This document shows positions 2,041 through 57,936 of a stretch of 64,000 nucleotides of DNA, piece after piece. The translations under genes were made by a program, and so were the position numbers. The notes under the pieces were generated by a model, which saw nothing but the letters and a program-made list of their open reading frames with translations, was not told where the DNA came from and ran no database searches. Source of the stretch: an uncultured Methanosarcinales archaeon (GTDB lineage Archaea > Nanobdellota > Nanobdellia > Woesearchaeales > CAIVOO01). The DNA lies in the NCBI GenBank assembly GCA_964485195.1, contig CAZAIK010000001.1:1-64000 (forward strand). The letters are read 5' to 3'. Each line of letters opens with the position of its first letter. Within the stretch, counting starts at the first letter, position 1.

Positions 2041-5000
2041 GTGAAAAAGGCAAAAATAAGGGAAGAATATGAAGAGAGCGTAATTAATCTTGCCATGGAC
2101 ACAATAATCAGGGGAAAGCAGGCGCTTGTATTTGTCTCCACCAAGGCAGGCTCTGAAGCCACAGCTGAAAAGATAGCGAGGAAAGCAAAAACAAGCCCTG
2201 AAATGACAGGGATTTCTGAGGAACTGCTTCACGCGCTCCCAAGGCCCACAAGGCAGTGCGAAAGGCTGGCAAGAGTGGCAAAAAAAGGAGTGGTGTTCCA
2301 CCATTCAGGGCTGCACCACAAGCAGAGGGAAATAATAGAGGAAGAGTTCAGGAAAGGCACAGTAAGGACAATATGCTGCACTCCTACTCTATGTTTGGCA
2401 GGAGATACCATGCTCTGGCACGGCATTCATGAAACTAAAGTTGCAAAGTTCCAAAGCTCTAATCCACTTTTTGTGCTTTCTGATAATAATTTAATAAAAA
2501 TGAAAGCTCAAGGTATTCAAAAAATAGGCAATGAATCCAAACTTATCCAAATTTCTTCAGCTTCAGGATATTCAATCAAGGTAACGCCAGAACATAAAAT
2601 GCTGGTCAAAAGGAAGAGCAAGAAATGCCTGATTCCTGCCAAGAAAATCAGAAAAAATGACAGGATTGCCACAATTGGCAAATTAAGCCTGGCAAAAAAT
2701 CGCACTCCCAAAATTAAAGATTTCATTATAGACAACGAGTTGACAGCGCCAAACAGTAAATTTAATCCTGATTTGTCCTATTTAATTGGCATAATGCTCG
2801 GGGATGGCTATTCCGGAGCTGAGACAGTTGAAGGAACAATCAAATATAAAGGGTCTCCTTCAATTGTTGGGATTGATAATGAAATTTTCTTATCAACCGC
2901 GGAAAGCTGCAATGCGCTAAAATTAAAGTACAGAAAAACAAGAACCTTTCACGGTGCTCCACAAGCTATCCTGGGAAAAAACAAGTGGTTTAGGGAATTC
3001 TTGGTCAGATGCGGTGTAGAAAAAAGGGACAGAAAGCACATATCTGAAAAATTAATGGCGATGGATCCTGAGAATGTTTCCTCAATGTTAAAAGGGTTAT
3101 TTGACACTGATGGGTTTGTAAACAAAAAGAGAAGTGTGGGTTTTAGCAGCGTTTCCGAAAGATTGGCCAGACAAACCCAAAAATTGCTTTTAAGATTTGG
3201 AATAGTTTCAACAGTCAGAAAAAGAAAGGGAAGTTCTATGAAAATCTATGAAAAAACATATAAAACCCTGCCTATTTACGAATTATTGGTATCCAACAAA
3301 AGAAGCATTCTTAATTTTTACAAATTCATAGGATTCAGGATAAAAAGAAAAGAAAATGAGCTTTTCGGGCTGATAGTTAAAATCTGCGCTAATTTTCACT
3401 ATGTCTCTTGCAGCAATTGTGATTACAAGGTGTATAAAGACCTCTTTACTGGAAGAACAAAAAGGCAAAAAGAAAAAGCCAACATCAGATTACAGGTCGT
3501 TAAACTGCTCGGCAAAGAGGGAGAGTCAGGTTCGCGGGAGATTAGGAGAATCATAGGAGAAAATCCTAGAAGCAAGGAGAGCAGGCTTAATCATCATTAC
3601 GAACTAATAAAAAAAAGCAAATCCGGAAGCACAGAATGGCTATGGAGCCTTAATCCCATAGGAAAATGGATTTATAAAAACATAATTCAAAATAACAAAG
3701 ACGTTAGCGAGTTTCTTAAAATACAAAAATGTCCCTTGTGCAAGAAAGAAATGGATTTCATAATTAAAAAGGGATGGAGAGGCTCGGATTTTGAAGGGGA
3801 TATTTTCTGGGATTTCGTCAAGGAAATAAAAACAGTGCCTTCTGAGCCATATGTTTACGACGTTGCATTGCCTGATAATCCTGAAAACAGCCATATGTTT
3901 GTAGCAAATGGTTTTGTCGTGCATAATTCCGCAGGAGTAGACCTCCCCGCATTCAGGACTATCCTCAAGGACCTGAAAAGATATGACGGAAGATGGGGCT
4001 ATTCCTGGATTCCCGTGCTTGAATACCAGCAGATGTCCGGAAGGGCCGGCAGGCCGGGAATGGAAGATTTTGGGGAAGCAATAGCAATCGCGTCAAATGA
4101 AAACGAGAAAGAGGAGATTCATGAAAGATACATCAACGGGGAGGTGGAGCCCGTTTATTCAAAGCTTGCAGTTGAGCCTGTCCTGAGAACATACATTCTT
4201 TCACTGATTGCAACTGAAGTCGTGAGGACAGAGAAACAGCTCATTGAATTCTTCAGCAGGACATTCTGGGCAATGCAGTACAAGGACACAAAAAAGCTGA
4301 ACAAGAAGATAGTTCAGATGGCCGAGCTCCTAAAGGATTTTGAATTCATTTCCTCATCAGAACCAGAATTTGTTTCAGCAGATGAAATAGGGAACAACAA
4401 GCTGAATGCCACAAAACTGGGAAGCCGGGTTGCGCAGCTATACATAGACCCCCTCACCGCGCACAGCCTAATAACAGGAATGAAAAAGGCAGGCAACAAG
4501 CCCTCTGTTTTCTCAATGCTTCAGCTGGTGAGCTACCAACTTGAGCTTAGGCCAAGATTAAGGCTGAGAAAGAGCGATTATGAAAGGGTGAATGACAAGA
4601 TATTGTCAGAGGACCTGCTGGTGAACGAGCCGGTCATTTACGACCCTGAATACTCGGATTTCCTGGACTCTGTGAAGACTGCAATGTTCTTTGAGGACTG
4701 GATTGGCGAAAAAACTGAGGAAGAGCTTTTGGAAAAATACAATGTCAGGCCCGGCGAGATAAAGGTAAAGACAGAGAATGCTGAATGGCTTCTTTACTCT
4801 GCGGAAGAGCTGGCAAAGATGATTGAAAGACAGGACTTGGTCAAGGAAATAATAAGGTTAAGGTTCAGAGTCATTAACGGAGTGAAGGAAGATGTGCTGC
4901 CATTACTGCAGCTGAAAGGGGTAGGAAGGGTCAAGTCAAGAAGATTGCTTAACAACAAGATTAAAACACTAAAGGACATAAAGGAGGCAAGCCTAACCAC

Positions 5001-5130
5001 CTTGTCGCAGGTAATAGGGGCGAAAACAGCGGCAAGTGTCAAGGAACAGCTTGGCGAAAAACCAATTAAGATACCTGAAAGAAAAAGAAAAGGCCAGCTG
5101 AGCTTGCTGGGTTATAAGGAAAAAGAATGA
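2041..5130 (+). CDS. hel308: Hel308/Ski2-like helicase, N-terminally truncated (RecA2, winged helix, ratchet, HhH), intein-containing
   Basis: ALVFVSTK, GVVFHHSGL, TPTL/SAGVDLPA, QMSGRAGRPG, LLQLKGVGR; C-terminal PIP-like QLSLLGY; no Walker A or DExH. Confidence 0.88.
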   Translation: MKKAKIREEYEESVINLAMDTIIRGKQALVFVSTKAGSEATAEKIARKAKTSPEMTGISEELLHALPRPTRQCERLARVAKKGVVFHHSGLHHKQREIIEEEFRKGTVRTICCTPTLCLAGDTMLWHGIHETKVAKFQSSNPLFVLSDNNLIKMKAQGIQKIGNESKLIQISSASGYSIKVTPEHKMLVKRKSKKCLIPAKKIRKNDRIATIGKLSLAKNRTPKIKDFIIDNELTAPNSKFNPDLSYLIGIMLGDGYSGAETVEGTIKYKGSPSIVGIDNEIFLSTAESCNALKLKYRKTRTFHGAPQAILGKNKWFREFLVRCGVEKRDRKHISEKLMAMDPENVSSMLKGLFDTDGFVNKKRSVGFSSVSERLARQTQKLLLRFGIVSTVRKRKGSSMKIYEKTYKTLPIYELLVSNKRSILNFYKFIGFRIKRKENELFGLIVKICANFHYVSCSNCDYKVYKDLFTGRTKRQKEKANIRLQVVKLLGKEGESGSREIRRIIGENPRSKESRLNHHYELIKKSKSGSTEWLWSLNPIGKWIYKNIIQNNKDVSEFLKIQKCPLCKKEMDFIIKKGWRGSDFEGDIFWDFVKEIKTVPSEPYVYDVALPDNPENSHMFVANGFVVHNSAGVDLPAFRTILKDLKRYDGRWGYSWIPVLEYQQMSGRAGRPGMEDFGEAIAIASNENEKEEIHERYINGEVEPVYSKLAVEPVLRTYILSLIATEVVRTEKQLIEFFSRTFWAMQYKDTKKLNKKIVQMAELLKDFEFISSSEPEFVSADEIGNNKLNATKLGSRVAQLYIDPLTAHSLITGMKKAGNKPSVFSMLQLVSYQLELRPRLRLRKSDYERVNDKILSEDLLVNEPVIYDPEYSDFLDSVKTAMFFEDWIGEKTEEELLEKYNVRPGEIKVKTENAEWLLYSAEELAKMIERQDLVKEIIRLRFRVINGVKEDVLPLLQLKGVGRVKSRRLLNNKIKTLKDIKEASLTTLSQVIGAKTAASVKEQLGEKPIKIPERKRKGQLSLLGYKEKE
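2392..3927 (+). mobile_element. intein (512 aa) with LAGLIDADG homing endonuclease in hel308
   Basis: Starts CLAGDT, ends VVHN followed by Ser; LIGIMLGDG and LKGLFDTDG blocks; removal restores TPTL-SAGVDLPA. Confidence 0.95.
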
Positions 5131-6978: not shown

Positions 6979-9768
6979 TTACTGCCCCGCCTTCCTCTGT
7001 TCCTTGTAGAAGGCTTTTACCATTGCTGATGTGCTGGCGTCTTCTGATGAGCGGTCTTCCCTCAGCCTCAGCAGCCTGGGGAATCTCAAGGCGTATCCTG
7101 AGCTATAGGTTGGCGATTTCTGTATTTCCTCGTATGTCACCTCAACAACAACTTCCGGCCTTATCCTGACTTCGTTTCCCTTTTCAGATGTTATGAGGGG
7201 CTTGAGCAGGTCAGTCAATTGCTGGAATGAAACGCCCTGCTCTTCCTTTTCCTTTATTCCTGTGCCAACCTTTCCCACTTCAAGGAACTCTCCTGTCTCC
7301 TCGTCCCTGCAGGCAAGCACGTAGCTTGACAGCCAGCCTGCCCTCTTGCCTGTTCCCCATTCAGCTCCCACTATCACCAAATCAAGCTCCTTCATTGTGG
7401 GCTTCAGCTTCACCATGAAACCCACTCTTGAGCCGGGCTTGTAAGGGGCTTCAAGCTTTTTCATCATCACTCCTTCCTGACCTATTTCAAGGGATTCCTT
7501 GTAGAACTTCTCTGCCTCTGCTTTCTTGCCAGTAACCAATTGCTTTGCCAGCACCATATCCCATTTTTTTGGATTTATTAATTTTTCAATCAATCCCCTT
7601 CTTTCCTTGAAAGGTATCTTTAGCGTGTTCTTGTCATTGTAGTAAAGTATGTCAAAGACATTCACCTCAACAGGAAATTCCTTTGCCATTCTTTCAATTT
7701 CATATTTTCTTTTTATCCTCTGGGATATGTTCTGGAAGGGCAGGTAGTTCTTAGTTTCAGGGTTGTAGCCCACAACTTCCGAGTCAAGGATGAAAACTTC
7801 ATTGGGAGTCTGCTCCCTGACAGCCTTTGCTATGTCGGGGAATTGCTTAGTAACATTCTCCAGTCTTCTTGTAAATATGCTAATCTCATTTTTATTCCTA
7901 TGTATCTGGCAGTTGTGAAGAGAGAATAATGTTGTGCAATAACTCTCATCATCTTTGATCTGGAGATTGTATAGCAGGGTTCTGGGATCTCTCCTTTTAA
8001 TCTCTTGCAGTTTTAAAAGCTTAACCAGGATATAATTTCCTTTAATTTTATAATGTTTTTTTGATTTTAACAGCATTAATTTATAATAAGTCTTCCCGCC
8101 AATCCTGAATTTTTTTAGGGCAATAACGACGCGATGTTTAAGGGCTACAAGTTGGGCAAACATTGCAAGATCTCTCTCCTTTGTTGTTATTGATGATCTT
8201 CCAAGTGAATCAGTATGACCGTCAGAATCTATCCATCCTTCCAGAAAGGCTAGAAACTGCTGCTTGGAGAGGTTATAAAACCATTCAGGGAGCATTTTGC
8301 CTTTCCATTCCCTTCTAAAAAGGGCGGAAAGCCAGATTCTCAGCGGTTTATCCCGCCAGTAGAGTGATACCTTCATTCTCTGCCTGCTCTCTGATATCTT
8401 TGTGATTTTCAGAGTTTTAGTAATGATTTTCCGGTATTTTTTAATTTTTTTTGTATGGTCTTTATTGAATACCAATCCAACCCTTTCAGTATTATGGTAC
8501 TCATTTGTGAACCCATCCCCTATCCAATAACCTAAAAATCTAAAAAAGTCCAAAGAGGGGCATATTAACTTTGAATAGTTTGAAGAATCTTTTAAATATA
8601 ATTTTTTCCCGGGTGGCTCGTCTTTAACAGTAAATGAAGGGATTGGAAAAGCTACCAAGTCTTTTTTAACAAGACTTTCAGAATTAATCCATTTTAGCTT
8701 TCCTTCCCTTTCAGTTAGGACAGCGTGGCCTTCTGAAATTCTAAACTCATTCCCTAAAAATGACTGAATATTGAATAATCTTTCCTTCTTGCCTATCTTC
8801 CTTTTATTAGTTGCAGTTACTTTTCTAAACCGACCTTTATGTGATAGAACGAGATCATTTTTTTTAATGTCTTTTATAGACAATAAACCCTTTTTATAAA
8901 CATAGATGGGGGTGTGGCCCGTAACACAACGAAACCCGTCGTATTTGTATTCTATTGCCGCCGGCTCCCCGACCCTTTCAAACCCTTCCTTCACGTCCTC
9001 AACCTTCTGGGCGAGCATTACCTTCACTGGCTTGCCCAGCACAAGCTCTATTGCCTTCACTCCTTTTTCCCCTTCTTTCTTTGCGGCCCTGGCCACCACT
9101 GAGAAATCATTTGCAGCGTCATAAGCATTCTGCACTATGTCTATGAAATAATTGTACTTGTCCCTGTTCTGCTCTGGAAATCTTATGTTGTTCTTCTTCT
9201 CTTCATATTCCAGGCCTATTTCCTCCCTGAAGAATGCCCAAACTATGGCATCCCTTATTGTCCCTTCCCCCAGCCCTACTCTCAGCTCTTCCAGCACTGT
9301 TCTTGCTATGTATCTTGCTTCCTTTGGCTTTGCGCTGGACAATAATTCAGCAACAAGCTTTATCTTCCTGTCAACACTCCCCTCCCCTTCAAGGGTTGTC
9401 AGTTTCTGTATGTTATCAAAGACCTTGGAAACTGTCAGTTCAGAGGAAAAGAGCGTTCTTTGTCTTTTCTTTGCAGCAAGCTCCTCTGCTGTGATTCCCA
9501 AATCCCCTTTTTTCCTGTAGCTTTCCTCAATGCTTTCTTTGGGGAGGCCTGTTGCTATTTCCAGTGCCTTTATCATCATCCTGGAGGCAAAGCCTATCTT
9601 CCTCTCATCCCACCTGGGGAAGGCCCTTCCCTGTATAAGCAGGATTACCTTGTCAACATCCTCTGCAGGTGTTTCCCTCAGGAATTCAGAAAGTATGTGT
9701 GTTTTCTCAAGCCTTTTGGCGGTATTCTCAAGCTTTTCATAAACTTCTGCCAGCTGTGAATATTTCAT
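6979..9768 (-). CDS. lig: ATP-dependent DNA ligase, intein-containing
   Basis: EYKYDGFR motif I, ILDSEVV, VFDIL, EGVMMK, ALRFPR. Confidence 0.97.
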   Translation of the reverse strand: MKYSQLAEVYEKLENTAKRLEKTHILSEFLRETPAEDVDKVILLIQGRAFPRWDERKIGFASRMMIKALEIATGLPKESIEESYRKKGDLGITAEELAAKKRQRTLFSSELTVSKVFDNIQKLTTLEGEGSVDRKIKLVAELLSSAKPKEARYIARTVLEELRVGLGEGTIRDAIVWAFFREEIGLEYEEKKNNIRFPEQNRDKYNYFIDIVQNAYDAANDFSVVARAAKKEGEKGVKAIELVLGKPVKVMLAQKVEDVKEGFERVGEPAAIEYKYDGFRCVTGHTPIYVYKKGLLSIKDIKKNDLVLSHKGRFRKVTATNKRKIGKKERLFNIQSFLGNEFRISEGHAVLTEREGKLKWINSESLVKKDLVAFPIPSFTVKDEPPGKKLYLKDSSNYSKLICPSLDFFRFLGYWIGDGFTNEYHNTERVGLVFNKDHTKKIKKYRKIITKTLKITKISESRQRMKVSLYWRDKPLRIWLSALFRREWKGKMLPEWFYNLSKQQFLAFLEGWIDSDGHTDSLGRSSITTKERDLAMFAQLVALKHRVVIALKKFRIGGKTYYKLMLLKSKKHYKIKGNYILVKLLKLQEIKRRDPRTLLYNLQIKDDESYCTTLFSLHNCQIHRNKNEISIFTRRLENVTKQFPDIAKAVREQTPNEVFILDSEVVGYNPETKNYLPFQNISQRIKRKYEIERMAKEFPVEVNVFDILYYNDKNTLKIPFKERRGLIEKLINPKKWDMVLAKQLVTGKKAEAEKFYKESLEIGQEGVMMKKLEAPYKPGSRVGFMVKLKPTMKELDLVIVGAEWGTGKRAGWLSSYVLACRDEETGEFLEVGKVGTGIKEKEEQGVSFQQLTDLLKPLITSEKGNEVRIRPEVVVEVTYEEIQKSPTYSSGYALRFPRLLRLREDRSSEDASTSAMVKAFYKEQRKAGQ
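7912..8928 (-). mobile_element. intein (339 aa) with LAGLIDADG endonuclease in DNA ligase
   Basis: CVTGHT...SLHN followed by Cys; FLGYWIGDG and LEGWIDSDG; removal restores KYDGFR-CQIH. Confidence 0.95.
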
Positions 9769-49889: not shown

Positions 49890-50914
49890 GAATAATTCTT
49901 TTTCATGTCTTCAATTTTCCTGGCAATCAATGGCCTGGCTTCGCTGAAGACAGGTTCTGCAAATTCCATCGTGTACGTTCTGTCTTCAAAAGACCTCTTT
50001 CTTATCTGCTTAATCAGAACATCCTCAAATCCTGCCAATCCCTCGTGAGTGCTCAAGTCCTCGCCGTAAATGTGAAATGAATCAGACCTGTCCTGAAAGG
50101 CTGCAATTTTTATAGGCTCCTCCCTTATTGCTGAAATTCCGTCAGCGATATATTTAATCAGGTGGATGAAAGCGAAGTCATTCATAAACGCTGCTTTATA
50201 CGCATCCCTGCTTCTGAAATCCATATTTGTGTTAAGGTTCCATATTCCTTCAGCGTCCTGCAGCATCCTGAACCAGAACCTTTGGAGACAGGCAGGATCC
50301 CCTATCCCCAAATCAACCCACGGCTGCCAGGTGATTGCCTCCACTCTCCTGGTTATTGGAGAGTTTGCAAGAAGCTCTATTACCTTGTCAACCTGGTTTA
50401 TCGGCTCTGTAATCCCCGGGACCTTATAGCTGAACAATCTTTCGTGATAGGTGTATTCCCATTTCGTGCTATCAGAATCTGTCGCATCCCTGATCAAAAA
50501 GTCTTTTATGCCGTCAATAACTTCCTGCCTGTATTCTTCCAGGGAATCAAGGCCCCCCGGAAAGCACCTGTGAATTATGGGCTCGGAGAGAGGGTTTAAT
50601 ATGGTCATGTTCATTGAACAGTCTATGCTTGGAGGGTCGCAAAAACTGCCGTTCTTGTCCTTCCTGTCATATTCTGTCCTTATCTCGCATCCGGCCCAGT
50701 AAAGAGCAAGCATCGCGTTTTCCCACGCTTCTGGAAGGTTATCGCCCACAACAGAAATCCTTGGTATGCTCCCGGCAATACCCTGACAATTCTCAGGCAG
50801 GGTCAGTCTGCCTGCGGGGGTTATAACTGTTCCCGGCAGGAATATCTTTCCTCCCTTCACCCTGGGAGTTATCAAATCAGAAATATCCTCCCTTTTGTAT
50901 GTTATCTCCCCCAT
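49886..50914 (-). CDS. thyA: thymidylate synthase-like protein (archaeal type)
   Basis: YTYHERL, TRR, PACL, FRSRD...N, SFHIY. Confidence 0.8.
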   Translation of the reverse strand: MGEITYKREDISDLITPRVKGGKIFLPGTVITPAGRLTLPENCQGIAGSIPRISVVGDNLPEAWENAMLALYWAGCEIRTEYDRKDKNGSFCDPPSIDCSMNMTILNPLSEPIIHRCFPGGLDSLEEYRQEVIDGIKDFLIRDATDSDSTKWEYTYHERLFSYKVPGITEPINQVDKVIELLANSPITRRVEAITWQPWVDLGIGDPACLQRFWFRMLQDAEGIWNLNTNMDFRSRDAYKAAFMNDFAFIHLIKYIADGISAIREEPIKIAAFQDRSDSFHIYGEDLSTHEGLAGFEDVLIKQIRKRSFEDRTYTMEFAEPVFSEARPLIARKIEDMKKNYS

Positions 50915-50983
50915 GAGAAAATGAAAAGCTGAATTTTATTTAAGCATTTATTTACTAAATTAATTATTTTAGAATAGTGATAA

Positions 50984-51102
50984 TAGCGGGGAGTGGATTT
51001 GAACCACCGACCTGCGGGTTACCTACAAAACGAAGTTTTGGATTTCCAAAACAGGGGTTTTGATATGAGCCCGCCGGGCACTCCTGACTGCCCCACCCCG
51101 CT
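50984..51102 (-). tRNA. initiator tRNA-Met(CAT) with 44-nt canonical intron (51020-51063)
   Basis: A1-U72 pair; GGG/CCC anticodon stem; CT-CAT-A[intron]A. Confidence 0.93.
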
Positions 51103-51179
51103 ATGAGAAATCAAAAACTGCGGTTTATTTATAAATCTTAGCAAATATTTAAAAACCAGAAGCATTGTTGCCAAATCAT

Positions 51180-51409
51180 GTCGGGGTGGCACAATCTGGT
51201 TCACTTTGTTTGCGCAAAGCGAACATCCTCCCCACTGCGAAAGGGCTGACGCCTTGCGCGTCCCGCCCCGAGCAACAGAGGGTAAGCCTGAGAAGGCTTG
51301 AAGTGCAGAAAACTGCGCTGGCCTGCTACCTGTTGCCAGCATTCCTTGCTGGCTCTCTTGGACAGCCAGTTTCCTTCGGGATTTCCGGGTTCAAATCCCG
51401 GCCCCGACG
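51180..51409 (+). tRNA. tRNA-Ser(GCT) with 111-nt D-loop intron (51201-51311) and 35-nt canonical intron (51329-51363)
   Basis: GTCGGGG/CCCCGAC acceptor stem; spliced D-arm GCACAATCTGGT-ACTGC; CTGGC-CT-GCT-A[..]A-GCCAG; long variable arm. Confidence 0.88.
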
Positions 51410-51459
51410 TTTTTAATAGGATAATTTTATAAATACGAAAAAACGAGTAATATCCTAAA

Positions 51460-52113
51460 ATGGCGAAAAAGAAGGCGAAGAAGGCTAAAAAAAGCGCTAA
51501 AAATTCTAAGCAGACACTTTCAAGAATCAGCAAAAAACTTGACAAGTTACTGGAAGGGCAGCAGGAGATTAAAGAGGAAGAAGAAGAAATCAAAGAATTG
51601 GAGAAAGAGGAACTTTCAGAAGAAAAAAAACTTGGCGGGGAGGAAAAGGAAGAGCTGGCAGAGCTCAAGGAGCTGGAGAAGATTGAAAAAGAGGTACAAA
51701 AACAGGTAATCCCCCATCCCCTGAAAAGAATCACGACCAAGGACCTGGCCAGGGGTTCCATAGGAGCGCTTTTCGGAGCTGTGGCCCATTACACTTTTAT
51801 CTACGGGCTTAAGGTTGCGGAGCACATAACATTCACAAGGGCAGCTATTCTTTTCATTCTTTCTTTTGGAATAGGAGGGGTTTTCCTTTACGCCACCGGC
51901 TTCAGGAAAATAAGGGATCCAAAAGTTTTGGCATTTTTGCCGGTAAGGCTTATAGTTTTATATATCACTGCGGTTATAATGTCAGTAATAGTGCTGTGGT
52001 TTTTCGAGCCCGGCTTCGGAGAATCTTTTGAGGAGGCCTTCAGGCAAACAGCAACCATAACATTGATAGCAGTCATAGGCGCGTGCACCGCGGACATAAT
52101 AGGAAAGGAATAA
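51460..52113 (+). CDS. membrane protein (DUF2391-like) with charged N-terminal coiled coil
   Basis: KD...GALFG followed by four hydrophobic helices. Confidence 0.75.
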   Translation: MAKKKAKKAKKSAKNSKQTLSRISKKLDKLLEGQQEIKEEEEEIKELEKEELSEEKKLGGEEKEELAELKELEKIEKEVQKQVIPHPLKRITTKDLARGSIGALFGAVAHYTFIYGLKVAEHITFTRAAILFILSFGIGGVFLYATGFRKIRDPKVLAFLPVRLIVLYITAVIMSVIVLWFFEPGFGESFEEAFRQTATITLIAVIGACTADIIGKE

Positions 52114-54385: not shown

Positions 54386-55666
54386 ATGCTGGAAATAAGA
54401 TTCGTGAGGGAAAACCCCAATATTGTCAAGAAGGACCTTGAAAAAAGAAAGGAAAAAGACAAGGCCAAGTGGGTGGATGAAGTTCTTAAGCTTGACGAGG
54501 AGTGGAGAAAACTTAAGGGCCAGGCAGATGAATTAAGAAGCAGGCGGAACAAGCTTTCCCAGGAAATCAACAAGCTGAAAAAAGAGGGAAAAGAGGCAGC
54601 AAAACCAATTAAGGAAGCAAAGGAGCTGCCTGGCAAGATAGACAAGCTGGAAAAAACCTTGGAAGAAAAGGAGAAAAAGATAAAGCATTATCTTATGAGA
54701 ATTCCTAACATACTTCACGAATCAGTTCCGCAGGGGGACACAGAGAAGGACAACGAGGAAGTGGCTAAATTCGGTAAGCCCCAAAGGTTTAGCTTTGAGC
54801 CGAAATCCCACGTTGACATTCTTGAGCAAAACTACCTTGCCGACCTTGAGAGAGCTGCCAAGATTTCAGGAGCGAGATGGTATTTCCTAAGGGGGGATCT
54901 GGCGCTGCTTGAAATGGCCCTTGCAAGATATGCTGTTGATTTTATGACAAGCAAAGGGTACACTCTTATGATTCCTCCGCATATGATGCACAGGAAGGCA
55001 TACGAAGGGGTAACCTCCCTGGACGATTTTGAAGAGATGCTCTACAAAGTTGAAGGGGAAGATTTATACCTTATCGCAACCTCAGAGCATCCTCTTACAG
55101 CAATGTGGATGGAAGAGGTTCTGGACCCAAAATGCCTGCCTATCAAAATGGCCGGGTTCAGCACGAATTTCAGGAAAGAAGCAGGAAGCCACGGAAGGGA
55201 CACCAAAGGAATCTTCAGGACGCACCAGTTCAACAAGGTGGAGCAGATAGTGGTTTGCAGGCCGGAAGATTCGTGGAAGTTCCACGAAGAATTAAGGAAA
55301 AACCTGGAGGAATTTTTCAAAAGCCTCGGACTGCACATAAGGACTGTTAATATCTGCACAGGAGACATAGGAATTGTTGCCGCAAAGAAATATGATGTTG
55401 AGGTATGGATGCCTGCGCAGGAAAAATTCAGGGAAGCTGGCTCCTGTTCAAACTGCACATCATACCAGGCAGTAAGACTTAACATCAGGTATAACGCAAA
55501 GGAAGGCAATGAGTATGTCCATACGCTAAACAGCACCTGTGTTGCAACAGGAAGAGCCTTGGCGGCAATACTTGAAAATTTCCAGCAGAAGGACGGAACT
55601 GTGAAGATTCCTGACGTCCTGTTTCCTTATATGAATGGAAAGAAAACCATCGGGTTCAAAAAGTGA
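54386..55666 (+). CDS. serS: serine--tRNA ligase
   Basis: LIATSE, FRKEAG, HQFNKVE, HTLNST. Confidence 0.98.
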   Translation: MLEIRFVRENPNIVKKDLEKRKEKDKAKWVDEVLKLDEEWRKLKGQADELRSRRNKLSQEINKLKKEGKEAAKPIKEAKELPGKIDKLEKTLEEKEKKIKHYLMRIPNILHESVPQGDTEKDNEEVAKFGKPQRFSFEPKSHVDILEQNYLADLERAAKISGARWYFLRGDLALLEMALARYAVDFMTSKGYTLMIPPHMMHRKAYEGVTSLDDFEEMLYKVEGEDLYLIATSEHPLTAMWMEEVLDPKCLPIKMAGFSTNFRKEAGSHGRDTKGIFRTHQFNKVEQIVVCRPEDSWKFHEELRKNLEEFFKSLGLHIRTVNICTGDIGIVAAKKYDVEVWMPAQEKFREAGSCSNCTSYQAVRLNIRYNAKEGNEYVHTLNSTCVATGRALAAILENFQQKDGTVKIPDVLFPYMNGKKTIGFKK

Positions 55667-55674
55667 GGTGCTAA

Positions 55675-55965
55675 ATGGGAAAGAAAAAGAAGAAATCAAT
55701 ATGGGACGCGGAATATAAAGAGGATTCCACGGAATACGCAAGAGAGAGGGGAATGGAGGATGAAGAGGAAGAGCACGAAGGAACCCATATGGAAGCCAAA
55801 GATGATATAGAAAGAGGTTTGGAAGAAGAGAACATCTATTCCGAAGAGGGAAGGAATCTTGAAAGGGAAGAGGACGCTTTGGAAGACTGGGAGCAGGGCT
55901 TTGCTGAGGGGGCCGAGAGCAAAAGCCCTTTAAGGAAGATTAAGAAAAAGAAGAAAAGGTCATAG
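55675..55965 (+). CDS. small acidic hypothetical protein
   Basis: GAGGTG SD; IYSEEGR...WEQGFAEG. Confidence 0.75.
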   Translation: MGKKKKKSIWDAEYKEDSTEYARERGMEDEEEEHEGTHMEAKDDIERGLEEENIYSEEGRNLEREEDALEDWEQGFAEGAESKSPLRKIKKKKKRS

Positions 55966-57882
55966 TCCCACTGAGCCCATAAAAATCTTTTTAACCCCCT
56001 GCAGCCTTCTTATCCTTTCAATCATCTCCTTGATATGCTCAAGGTCCTCTAAATTAAGCTTAAAACTGCATTCAGCCATATTGTTGCCTATTACCTTGGC
56101 GTTTGCATTCTGAATGCTGGCCCCAGTGAATGTGATAGTGTTTAGTATATCTGCGAACAGGCCGGGCCTGTCAAGTGCTTCTATTTTAAGAGTTATTACG
56201 TCATCGAAATGCTGCCTCCATTCAACTTTAACTTTTTTCTTGGCTGCTTTTTCATAAGCTTTGCAGTCCTTCCTGTGAACAGTAACTGTGTCTGTTTTTG
56301 AGGTAAGCCCTATTATTTTGTCTCCTGGGTTTGGGGTGCAACAGCTGGCCAGCTTAAACTTGGGTTTGCTGACAGCTTCACACACCAGAATGCCTGTTGC
56401 CTTGTCACCCAAGTCCTCCTTTTCCTTTTTCTTCATGGCCTTGGCAGGCAGCTTCTCCTTTTCCTGCACAGCCTTCTTTATCTTGTGCAGGGCTTTTGTG
56501 GTCTTGGCTATGTTAAGCCAGCTCCTGCTGGGCCTTTGAGTTTTTGAGGTTATTACTTCAACAACATCCCCTGTTTTAAGGGGATACCTCAATGAAACAA
56601 ACATTCCATTAACCTTTGCGCCCATACAATGGTTACCTATTTCAGAGTGCACTGAATAAGCGAAATCAAGAGGGGTTGAGCCGTTGGGCAGCTCTATTAC
56701 ATCCCCCCTGGGAGTAAATGTGTAAATCTCATCCTTGAAAAAATCTATCTCCAAGGATTCTATGAATTCCTTTGCCGTGTCTGATTCCTGCTGCCAGTCT
56801 ATAATCTCCTTAAGCCAGGACAGCTTTTTGTCAAATTCCGTCCCCTTGCCCAGTCCCTTGTACTGCCAGTGGGCAGCTATGCCCTCCTCAGCCACCTCTT
56901 CCATCTCCCTGGTCCTTATCTGGACCTCTACCACCCTGCCTTCGGGAGTAAGCATAACATCGTGCAGCGACTGATACATATTTACCTTGGGCATTGCAAT
57001 GTAATCCTTGAACCTTCTCGGGATGGGCTTCCAGGTGTTGTGGAGAAGTCCCAAAATCTTGTAGCAGTTTGCAACGCTGTCAGTTATTATCCTTACTCCA
57101 ACCACATCAAAAATTTCCTCAAATGACCTGTTCTTTCTTTTCATTTTTCTGTAGATGGCATATGCTGTCTTCAGCCTTCCTATAATTTCCGAAGGGATTG
57201 AATTTTCCTTCAAAAGAGAATTAAGCTGTTTTTTCAGCTTGCTGATCTCCTTTTCCCTCTCCTTAATTCTTGACTTTACTTTTGAATTAATCTCACTGTA
57301 TCTCTCGGGCTGGGTATAACGGAATGCCAAATCCTCTAACTGGCTTTTTACCCTGTGAATACCCAGCCTGTAAGCCAAAGGGGTATATATGCCCATTACC
57401 TCTTTTGCTATCCTGAGCTGTTTTTCCCTGGGAAGGTAATTCAGGGTGCGCATATTATGCAGCTTGTCCAGGAGTTTAATGATTAAAATCCTGATGTCTT
57501 TGGCTGTGGCGAAAAGCATCTTTCGTATGGACTCAAACTGGTATTCTTCCCTGCCTTTTGACTTCAGCTGTGTGAGTTTTGTGAGGCCGTCCACTATCAT
57601 GGCAACGTCTTTGCCAAACTCTTTCTCTATGAACTTCAGCGGGTACTCGGCGTTTTCTATGACATCGTGAAGAAGGGCTGCGCATACAGATTCTGTGTCC
57701 ATCTTGAAATCAGCAGCCAGGTTTGCCACCTCCAGCGGATGCACAATGTAAGATTCGCCAGATGCCCTCTTCTCCCCCTTATGCGCCTTCACAGCCGTTT
57801 CATGTGCCTTTCTAATCAAAGCTGTGTCAGCATCCTTGTCATAGGACTTCACTTTTCTTATGATGGTATCTATCTTGATCAT
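55960..57882 (-). CDS. long RelA/SpoT homolog (HD-SYNTH-TGS-ZFD-ACT)
   Basis: RASGESYIVHP, LLHDVIEN, DKLHNMRTL, RFKDYIAMPK.NMYQSLH, EVQIRT, AAHWQYK, TPLDFAY, CCTP.PGD, DRPGL. Confidence 0.96.
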   Translation of the reverse strand: MIKIDTIIRKVKSYDKDADTALIRKAHETAVKAHKGEKRASGESYIVHPLEVANLAADFKMDTESVCAALLHDVIENAEYPLKFIEKEFGKDVAMIVDGLTKLTQLKSKGREEYQFESIRKMLFATAKDIRILIIKLLDKLHNMRTLNYLPREKQLRIAKEVMGIYTPLAYRLGIHRVKSQLEDLAFRYTQPERYSEINSKVKSRIKEREKEISKLKKQLNSLLKENSIPSEIIGRLKTAYAIYRKMKRKNRSFEEIFDVVGVRIITDSVANCYKILGLLHNTWKPIPRRFKDYIAMPKVNMYQSLHDVMLTPEGRVVEVQIRTREMEEVAEEGIAAHWQYKGLGKGTEFDKKLSWLKEIIDWQQESDTAKEFIESLEIDFFKDEIYTFTPRGDVIELPNGSTPLDFAYSVHSEIGNHCMGAKVNGMFVSLRYPLKTGDVVEVITSKTQRPSRSWLNIAKTTKALHKIKKAVQEKEKLPAKAMKKKEKEDLGDKATGILVCEAVSKPKFKLASCCTPNPGDKIIGLTSKTDTVTVHRKDCKAYEKAAKKKVKVEWRQHFDDVITLKIEALDRPGLFADILNTITFTGASIQNANAKVIGNNMAECSFKLNLEDLEHIKEMIERIRRLQGVKKIFMGSVGL

Positions 57883-57936
57883 AGTATTACATAATACAAA
57901 GAAATATTTAAATATATCATCACACAAAGCTGTATT

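Follow-up and report, generated by a model that had tools for sequence, protein, structure and literature searches.

Introns of archaeal tRNA genes are not restricted to the canonical position and, in the accessible text of PMC4090602, position 20/21 is a listed intron site and HBh' variants of the bulge-helix-bulge (BHB) splice motif are known. A group of particular relevance is formed by the transposed tRNA-intron families of the Thermoproteales (Fujishima et al. 2010, as cited in the accessible parts of PMC4090602 and bioRxiv 10.64898/2026.10.13.758758), in which related introns sit in several tRNA genes of one genome and their presence varies between close relatives. Another is the euryarchaeal pre-tRNA-Trp intron, which is long and structured and would be released as a circle (same part of PMC4090602). 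As to how such introns arrive, a mobile-element route has been proposed for one intron gain in Caldiarchaeum (accessible part of PMC3293823), the available portion of a 2026 Asgard preprint reports that no general arrival route was found, and a preprint on Nanobdellota genomes, as far as its accessible text goes, mentions introns once and describes no repeat of the kind reported below. Among elements outside tRNA genes, the closest are the bacterial REPs, which in the accessible account of PMC3733652 are short palindromes present in several copies behind coding regions, often overlapping the stop codon, with a patchy distribution and occasional arrays. The 111-nt intron of the tRNA-Ser(GCT) gene described here behaves like a non-canonical BHB intron in every feature of that class that could be tested. 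The intron type is already known, and the core of this Ser 20/21 intron is, as read from the genomes compared, also dispersed behind stop codons. Rfam and the literature yielded no match to this element, the coverage of subscription papers being poor.

The window, that is, the whole stretch of 64,000 nucleotides that was analysed, is the start of contig C1 of a genome of 1.13 Mb that is 99.5% complete and is referred to as G000 (G-numbers denote genomes, L-numbers loci and C-numbers contigs). Its genes are archaeal in affiliation, the closest structure to the G000 EndA is that of Nanoarchaeum equitans, and the closest atlas clusters are mostly from Woesearchaeota/Nanobdellota; the source organism is probably a DPANN archaeon of the Woesearchaeota. 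The stretch was matched in two microbial-mat DNA runs of a single study, one of which is possibly its source; RNA runs were absent from the matches, a result without bearing on expression. Other genes of the window include a Hel308-like helicase containing an intein (2041-5130, plus strand), an unusually long ATP-dependent DNA ligase (6979-9768, minus strand; 929 aa) with split matches, perhaps intein-bearing too, and a long RelA/SpoT-family protein (55960-57927, minus strand) that scores above the NCBIfam cut-off in an archaeon. Elsewhere in the genome, the 16S gene (C2:1-1100) is interrupted by an insertion behind the 790 loop region, and for 23S (C3:121179-125992, minus strand) the match exceeds the model by about 600 nt.

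The tRNA-Ser(GCT) gene, the only GCT-type Ser gene found in the genome, is interrupted by the 111-nt intron in the D-loop and by a canonical intron, with the coordinates and junctions of the original prediction (Table 1). The unspliced gene is missed by ARAGORN and Rfam, and the joined exons are recognized by ARAGORN as a normal 84-nt tRNA-Ser(GCT). The D-arm that removal of the intron had been said to restore is indeed a normal one, identical to the mature D-arm of the intronless Ser(GGA) gene of G000. A contig of a relative (depth 3.8, from another study) covers 50907-51482 and omits exactly 51201-51311, with a shorter side of 175 letters, and a second run contains the identical joint with a short side of merely 22 letters; the relative's contig is DNA without the intron, not a product of splicing. 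This relative retains the canonical intron with few substitutions. The TATA-like box stands at what we take to be the archaeal promoter position.

Table 1. Features of the tRNA-Ser(GCT) locus (positions in the window) and further introns of G000 (positions in the contigs named).
Feature	Position	Strand	Remark
TATA-like box	51148..51155	+	32-25 nt upstream of the tRNA; read from sequence
Exon 1, acceptor 5' strand to U20	51180..51200	+	
TCTG, exon half of the BHB central helix	51195-51198	+	
G18-G19	51198-51199	+	in exon 1
5' hairpin of the element	51199..51224	+	spans the 5' splice site; G19-U20 and intron start pair with 51215-51224
111-nt intron, site 20/21, relaxed HBh' motif	51201..51311	+	exact empty site in a relative
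Box A, CCTCCCCACT	51227..51236	+	first CC mirrors host GG
Box B, TCCC-N-CCCC plus tail	51261..51273	+	
Private hairpin AAGCCT-GAGA-AGGCTT	51284..51299	+	missing from the 4 other aligned introns
3' splice arm	51301..51311	+	intron helix AAGTG, central-helix half CAGA, two bulge bases
Exon 2, A21 to A37	51312..51328	+	anticodon GCT 51325-51327
Canonical 37/38 intron, 35 nt, relaxed motif	51329..51363	+	unrelated to the element
Exon 3, anticodon-stem 3' strand, long variable arm, T arm, acceptor 3' strand	51364..51409	+	
T run after exon 3	51410-51414	+	
Intron with CTGA-stem-RATGA	C6:85712-85842		G000
Intron with CTGA-stem-RATGA	C2:116194-116323	-	G000
Intron with CTGA-stem-RATGA	C1 near 152131	-	G000

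In their joint minimum-energy fold, D-arm and intron form a central helix from UCUG and CAGA, whose pairs have a probability of about 0.82, a 5' bulge of 3 nt and, within the intron, the helix CACUU/AAGUG, as expected from the bulge-helix-bulge geometry that had been claimed, but the 3' splice site lies inside an internal loop, and the motif is therefore a relaxed HBh' and not a full hBHBh'. Against shuffles, the splice motif has a p below 0.01, and the 5' hairpin of the element is an alternative to this splice-competent fold. The canonical 35-nt intron has a weak central helix, as read from the sequence, with three of four pairs formed and two of them G-U. EndA is encoded in G000 as one 183-aa subunit (L183:1234-1785, G000:C6), a second EndA paralogue looked for in this genome was not found, and RtcB is also encoded (PF01139, E 3e-175). 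The gene would give a working tRNA-Ser(GCT), with EndA cutting both introns and RtcB joining the exons, and the excised 111-nt intron is expected to circularise, since both enzymes are encoded. The G000 EndA is colinear with the M. jannaschii enzyme and has none of the extra loop residues of N. equitans and ARMAN-2, and relaxed and non-canonical introns are abundant in G000, a combination that fits badly with a specific-loop requirement for relaxed motifs (accessible part of PMC5829648). Head-to-head with the Ser gene, across a 77-nt spacer, lies an initiator-type tRNA-Met(CAT) gene (50983-51103, minus strand) with a 44-nt canonical intron that is shorter in a relative; ARAGORN, with introns allowed, miscalls this gene as Thr. 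A seryl-tRNA synthetase gene (54386-55666, plus strand) is found 3 kb downstream of the Ser gene. The other introns called in the window measure 14-44 nt, in agreement with the original prediction.

The core of the 111-nt intron is present in three of the four tRNA-Ser genes of G000 (GCT, TGA and CGA), the homologous introns occupying the same site and measuring 95 nt in Ser(TGA) and 82 nt in Ser(CGA). The GCT and TGA introns share 69% identity over about 100 nt, and no tRNA gene of another amino-acid type was found with this intron family in G000. Other genomes carry it in one Ser gene each, with a different isoacceptor each time, namely CGA in G376 (94 nt), TGA in G407 (94 nt) and GGA in G141, the last intron being more diverged than the other two. 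Common to five aligned introns are the splice helix, the 5' hairpin with G19-U20, box A (consensus CCTCCC[C/T]AC) and box B (consensus CCC[G/A]CCCCGA[G/A]C), the hairpin being part of the RNAalifold consensus of the five, with two pairs showing double-sided changes. The further helices named in the original prediction do exist in the fold of this intron on its own, which is stable for its composition (z = -3.31; 0 of 200 shuffles as stable). However, among the five homologues these inner helices are only 44-65% paired, their covariation score is reached by 229 of 500 shuffles, and the intron region has no match in Rfam. Lack of conservation of the intron, which the original prediction had named as a ground for its own refutation, is seen for the multi-branched fold, which is private to this copy, and not for the two boxes and the 5' hairpin, which are kept across families; because of this conservation, a function for the core that they form is conceivable.

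Several other Ser introns deserve mention beside this family. The Ser(TGA) and Ser(CGA) genes of G000 (L033 and L176) have closely similar 59/60 introns of about 36 nt, whereas their D-loop introns share little beyond the boxes. Two Ser D-loop introns of G076 (L175:1507-1587, minus strand, and L177:1512-1594) have an initial hairpin and a related C-rich box and possibly represent a sister family; the model missed them, and they were left out of the counts. In a metagenomic tRNA-Ser(GGA) gene (L157:407-640, minus strand), the 20/21 and 37/38 introns have an almost identical stretch of 55 nt at their start, which directly indicates that intron sequence moves between positions. A metagenome scan for long Ser D-loop introns returned two loci of unrelated sequence.

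Outside tRNA introns, the core belongs to a non-coding element of about 100 nt that is dispersed in this archaeal order and consists of a perfect hairpin of variable sequence, box A, a spacer of 19-22 nt, box B and, about 20 nt further on, an AACT box. Free copies number 27 in all, spread over 13 genomes from 10 other families, 25 of them from a pattern scan and two from other searches; they stand directly behind stop codons on the coding strand, except for one of the 27, which stands behind a tRNA. The first search to find them used a sequence model of five introns, which gave intergenic matches in six other genomes, in addition to the G141 intron, among 150 genomes of the order, matches in three of 80 further genomes of the order, and the own genome only among 150 genomes drawn from the class. 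With the two-box pattern, 25 of 401 genomes yielded 43 matches in total, compared with 31 for the reversed control, and this raw count is not significant on its own. The 43 matches comprise four tRNA introns, four matches in unpublished genomes (G212 and G137), which were set aside and enter only the order-wide raw tallies and denominators just given, 10 chance-like matches and 25 free copies. Matches with spacers outside 12-34 nt and one chance-like G000 match were excluded before the counts, and L222, L242 and L257 were dropped from 28 free matches for most counts and put back for the comparison of spacers and stems in 34 matches.

Real and chance matches can be told apart by features that lay outside the query, namely the spacer, the stem and the AACT box. 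A spacer of 19-22 nt occurs in 27 of the 34 non-tRNA matches that were read, and a perfect upstream stem of 7-13 bp accompanies 22 of these 27 versus none of the seven others; as a background, such a stem turns up in G000 at 21 of 1004 gene ends and, for random windows, in 42 of 3000. A hairpin equivalent to the 5' hairpin of the intron is present in 22 of 25 free copies, and in 15 of 26 copies box B is followed by AACT at a distance of 21-28 nt, as compared with 3.3% per window. Of 25 rows, 24 have the end of a same-strand open reading frame upstream, no more than 90 nt away in 21 cases, with two further close stops, and every copy is on the transcribed strand. The host genes include PAC2, DUF3467, EF-1 beta, S13 and Glu/Gln-tRNA synthetase, and a genome holds between one and five copies. 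When a profile of free copies only was run against G000, no free copy was found and the three Ser introns alone came below E 1 (E 5e-5, 0.004 and 0.007), a profile that is partly circular in that introns had seeded the original search. The boxes are nearly unchanged across 13 families while the spacers diverge, an invariance that is partly built into the search pattern. At one locus (L219:440-720, G156:C32), modules are arrayed in tandem behind a PAC2 gene, with C-box and AACT alternating; in three modules, box B and AACT are a constant 29 nt apart.

With regard to the hairpin, single mismatches are A-C in nine cases, G-T in five and others in six, and the sense-strand RNA stem shows no sign of selection and no G-U bias. 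The loop is TTC in 11 of 22 stems, and GAA, the complement of TTC, is a very stable DNA triloop. On the opposite strand, four G runs might form a G-quadruplex, its loop position being biased by the search pattern. Inner and downstream hairpins reach p<0.05 in only two of 26 and three of 19 copies, respectively, and are unsupported as conserved features. Free copies are ruled out as BHB introns of mRNA, since the splice geometry of the tRNA type is missing from them (p was 0.19 or higher in all 20 copies that could be assessed, versus 0.05 or less in five of six introns). The boxes are 31-34 nt apart in free copies and 34-38 nt apart in introns; given the tighter spacing and the lack of a splice motif in free copies, the intron form looks like the derived one. 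A role as terminator is in our reading unlikely, because one copy interrupts the only Ser(GCT) gene and another separates rps13 from the gene that follows. A loose pattern scan of the genome collection returned at least 117 stretches, none in a tRNA context among the matches listed.

Presence of the element varies between close relatives. All four Ser tRNAs of the same-genus genome G001 are without a 20/21 intron, G376 has the intron in CGA only, and G407 has it in TGA and not in CGA or GCT. Since the 111-nt intron is missing from all four same-genus Ser tRNAs and from the same locus of the close relative, it is, to judge from its distribution, dispensable. Among free copies, two in G149 at unrelated sites are 95% identical over 105 nt, one site filled in G156 is empty in the same-genus G033, and at another site filled in G033, G156 keeps the hairpin alone. 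An element stands behind the PAC2 gene at two of 30 loci read, and the ends of PAC2-family and DUF3467 genes recur as host sites in different families (hosts in G108, G029 and G033:C15 were assigned by eye or flank similarity). The empty sites and the near-identical G149 copies point to mobility of the element, although no free copy has a near-identical empty site by which its ends could be fixed. The reuse of gene ends and the constancy of the boxes are as compatible with selection as with spread. None of the copies adjoins a transposase or another mobile gene; Y1 transposase genes are present in three of five genomes tested, with no element in those loci, the genomes being incomplete, and none was found in G000. 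Viral scans gave one chance-like match and then none, and thus no viral copy.

A further regularity concerns the host sequence at the foot of the hairpin. The first CC of box A is mirrored by a GG, at an offset of 0-4, in 19 of 26 free copies (12 of them at offset 2) versus 22% expected, and at offset 2-3 in six of six introns, where it is G18-G19 of the tRNA. Of the 20 free copies having such a GG, 11 have it 1-2 nt before the stop codon. PAC2 genes free of the element mostly end in the same GG-N-stop, and the GG therefore belongs to the host. The element is thus associated, in the copies compared, with sites where a host GG lies at the hairpin foot opposite the box A CC, and this GG may act as a targeting signal. 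IS607-family elements have a GG core, GG at both ends and a linked serine transposase; in the tRNA copies, GG is found only at the 5' side.

When these features are set against the systems described at the outset, the likeness to archaeal BHB/HBh' non-canonical introns (accessible text of PMC4090602) extends to the 20/21 site, the HBh' motif, the accompanying canonical intron and the presence of EndA and RtcB. What sets the present intron apart from them is its length of 111 nt and its construction around a repeat that is also found outside tRNA genes, where it has no splice motif. The transposed families of the Thermoproteales, as far as the available accounts go, differ in that the introns reported here are confined to tRNA-Ser 20/21, are more diverged (69%) and have a visible non-tRNA donor; a Thermoproteales-type definition asks for at least 80% identity in two or more tRNA types, and the present family links three Ser isoacceptors at about 69% or less. 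With bacterial REPs (accessible part of PMC3733652) the element has in common a short palindrome in several copies per genome, a position directly behind coding regions that often overlaps the stop codon, a patchy distribution and occasional arrays. However, there is no tag as in GTAG/CGTC REPs, only GG being common at the hairpin foot; the stems differ between copies, and what is conserved is the flanking 60-nt tail. Unlike RAYT-linked REPs, the element has 1-5 copies per genome and no linked RAYT was found. For want of the tag, of stem conservation and of a linked RAYT, we do not class it as a REP. The pre-tRNA-Trp C/D intron, finally, differs in that no C or C' box is present here, the D-like motifs are unconserved, no conserved target was found in 16S, 23S, RNase P or SRP RNA, and the intron is not fixed in the lineage.

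We hold with moderate confidence that a REP-like mini-element was captured in the D-loop and made splicable, and that it was subsequently passed by copying from one Ser isoacceptor to others. A non-autonomous REP/MITE-like DNA element would land next to GG, at single-stranded or hairpin-forming sites, and would persist only where it is harmless, either behind stop codons or, in a splicable form, in the D-loop of a tRNA. One copy would have landed after U20, at a guess first in a dispensable isoacceptor such as Ser(CGA), and acquired a 3' arm with complementarity to the flank, which would have made it removable by EndA. The Ser D-arms being near-identical, the intron could then have been copied among isoacceptors, which would account for the three copies in G000, and its inner helices would have been reshaped along the way; the circle released on excision would be a by-product. 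The direction of transfer, the insertion chemistry and the copying are all presumed in this scheme. One family is nevertheless seen in three states, namely free without a splice motif, in the Ser D-loop with one, and absent at the identical site, and these states offer a donor, a GG target signature and matched filled and empty alleles, which make the route testable and the core of the intron a concrete lead on the origin of archaeal tRNA introns. A more specific proposal, which we regard as doubtful, is that of a target-guided mobile unit of DPANN archaea, in which the CC(U) of box A would pair with the target GG, the target flank would be copied into the hairpin, and insertions at G18-G19 would become splicable introns. 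If true, it would reveal a donor-and-targeting route for the gain of archaeal tRNA introns, with the excised circle possibly as an intermediate.

Capture of a mobile element has to be weighed against other explanations. The element may have a function as a small RNA or at mRNA ends and belong to a class so far undescribed, with protein-bound boxes and the circle as carrier, hosted behind stop codons and in tRNA introns much as archaeal C/D and H/ACA sRNAs are. The conservation of boxes A and B and their spacing across 13 families would fit such a role, as would the restriction to the transcribed strand, the reuse of the same gene ends, a DUF3467 site at which hairpin pairing is kept in two genera despite different stop codons, and the constant 29-nt distance from box to AACT in the L219 array. 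We nonetheless consider this less likely than capture, because the element is found in a small minority of about 410 order genomes and in one of 150 in the class sample (the own genome), is missing from same-genus tRNAs and from the close relative, and has the unsupported inner and downstream hairpins noted above; moreover, its variable parts match rRNA over lengths no different from those of shuffles, with the rRNAs of G000 and G378 as stand-ins, and Rfam has no match. The direction might also be the reverse, with the excised intron circle as the mobile form that seeded the copies behind stop codons by reverse splicing or reverse transcription. Although all copies are sense to transcription, EndA and RtcB are present and the unit length of about 100-110 nt resembles that of the introns (82-111 nt), this course of events appears improbable, since free copies have no BHB geometry, those Ser tRNAs of free-copy genomes that were read all lack this intron, and G000 has three intron copies and no free copy.

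Two further readings concern the intron and its gene rather than the dispersed element. It is very hard to credit that tRNA-Ser(GCT) is a pseudogene disabled by the insertion. In favour of this reading, the EndA is colinear with the M. jannaschii enzyme at the N. equitans loop, and enzymes without N. equitans-type loop residues are reported to prefer strict BHB motifs (accessible part of PMC5829648); against it, the spliced gene is a normal tRNA and the only one of its type found. The analogy with the C/D guide RNA of the tRNA-Trp intron had been suggested in the original prediction and is contradicted by the comparison, so that this identity is likewise hardly tenable. The observation on which it drew is correct, as the 111-nt intron contains two CTGA (intron positions 46 and 88) and, as had also been noted, no box C within one mismatch, and genes for fibrillarin and Cbf5 are present in five of five genomes tested. 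However, TGATGA within one mismatch is absent from all five aligned introns, even across the circle junction, CTGA is found in only one of the five homologues, and rRNA complementarity does not exceed that of shuffles. No target site in 16S, 23S, RNase P or SRP RNA is common to the three G000 introns. Complementarity to the 23S P-loop/A-loop, 16S, RNase P and SRP RNA was tried and rejected, as it amounts to at most 8-12 nt with G-U and is not common to the homologues; identity of the intron with RNase P or SRP RNA was also rejected, both being present elsewhere in the genome. In H/ACA RNAs, a hairpin that contains a pseudouridylation pocket is followed after 14-16 nt by an ACA box; here, no conserved stem surrounds the boxes and Rfam has no match, so that such an architecture is not supported. 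HDV-like, twister and hammerhead ribozyme folds gave no fit by eye against their consensus and no Rfam match, and Rfam searches of the window, the region and 20 free-copy loci returned nothing relevant. A tRNA intron can therefore be long and structured without being a guide RNA, and genes of this kind escape standard scans. The canonical introns of the Trp, elongator-Met and Cys tRNAs of G000 each contain CTGA, a short stem and RATGA, an arrangement like a kink-turn or C'/D' motif, and are in our view better C/D candidates than the Ser intron.
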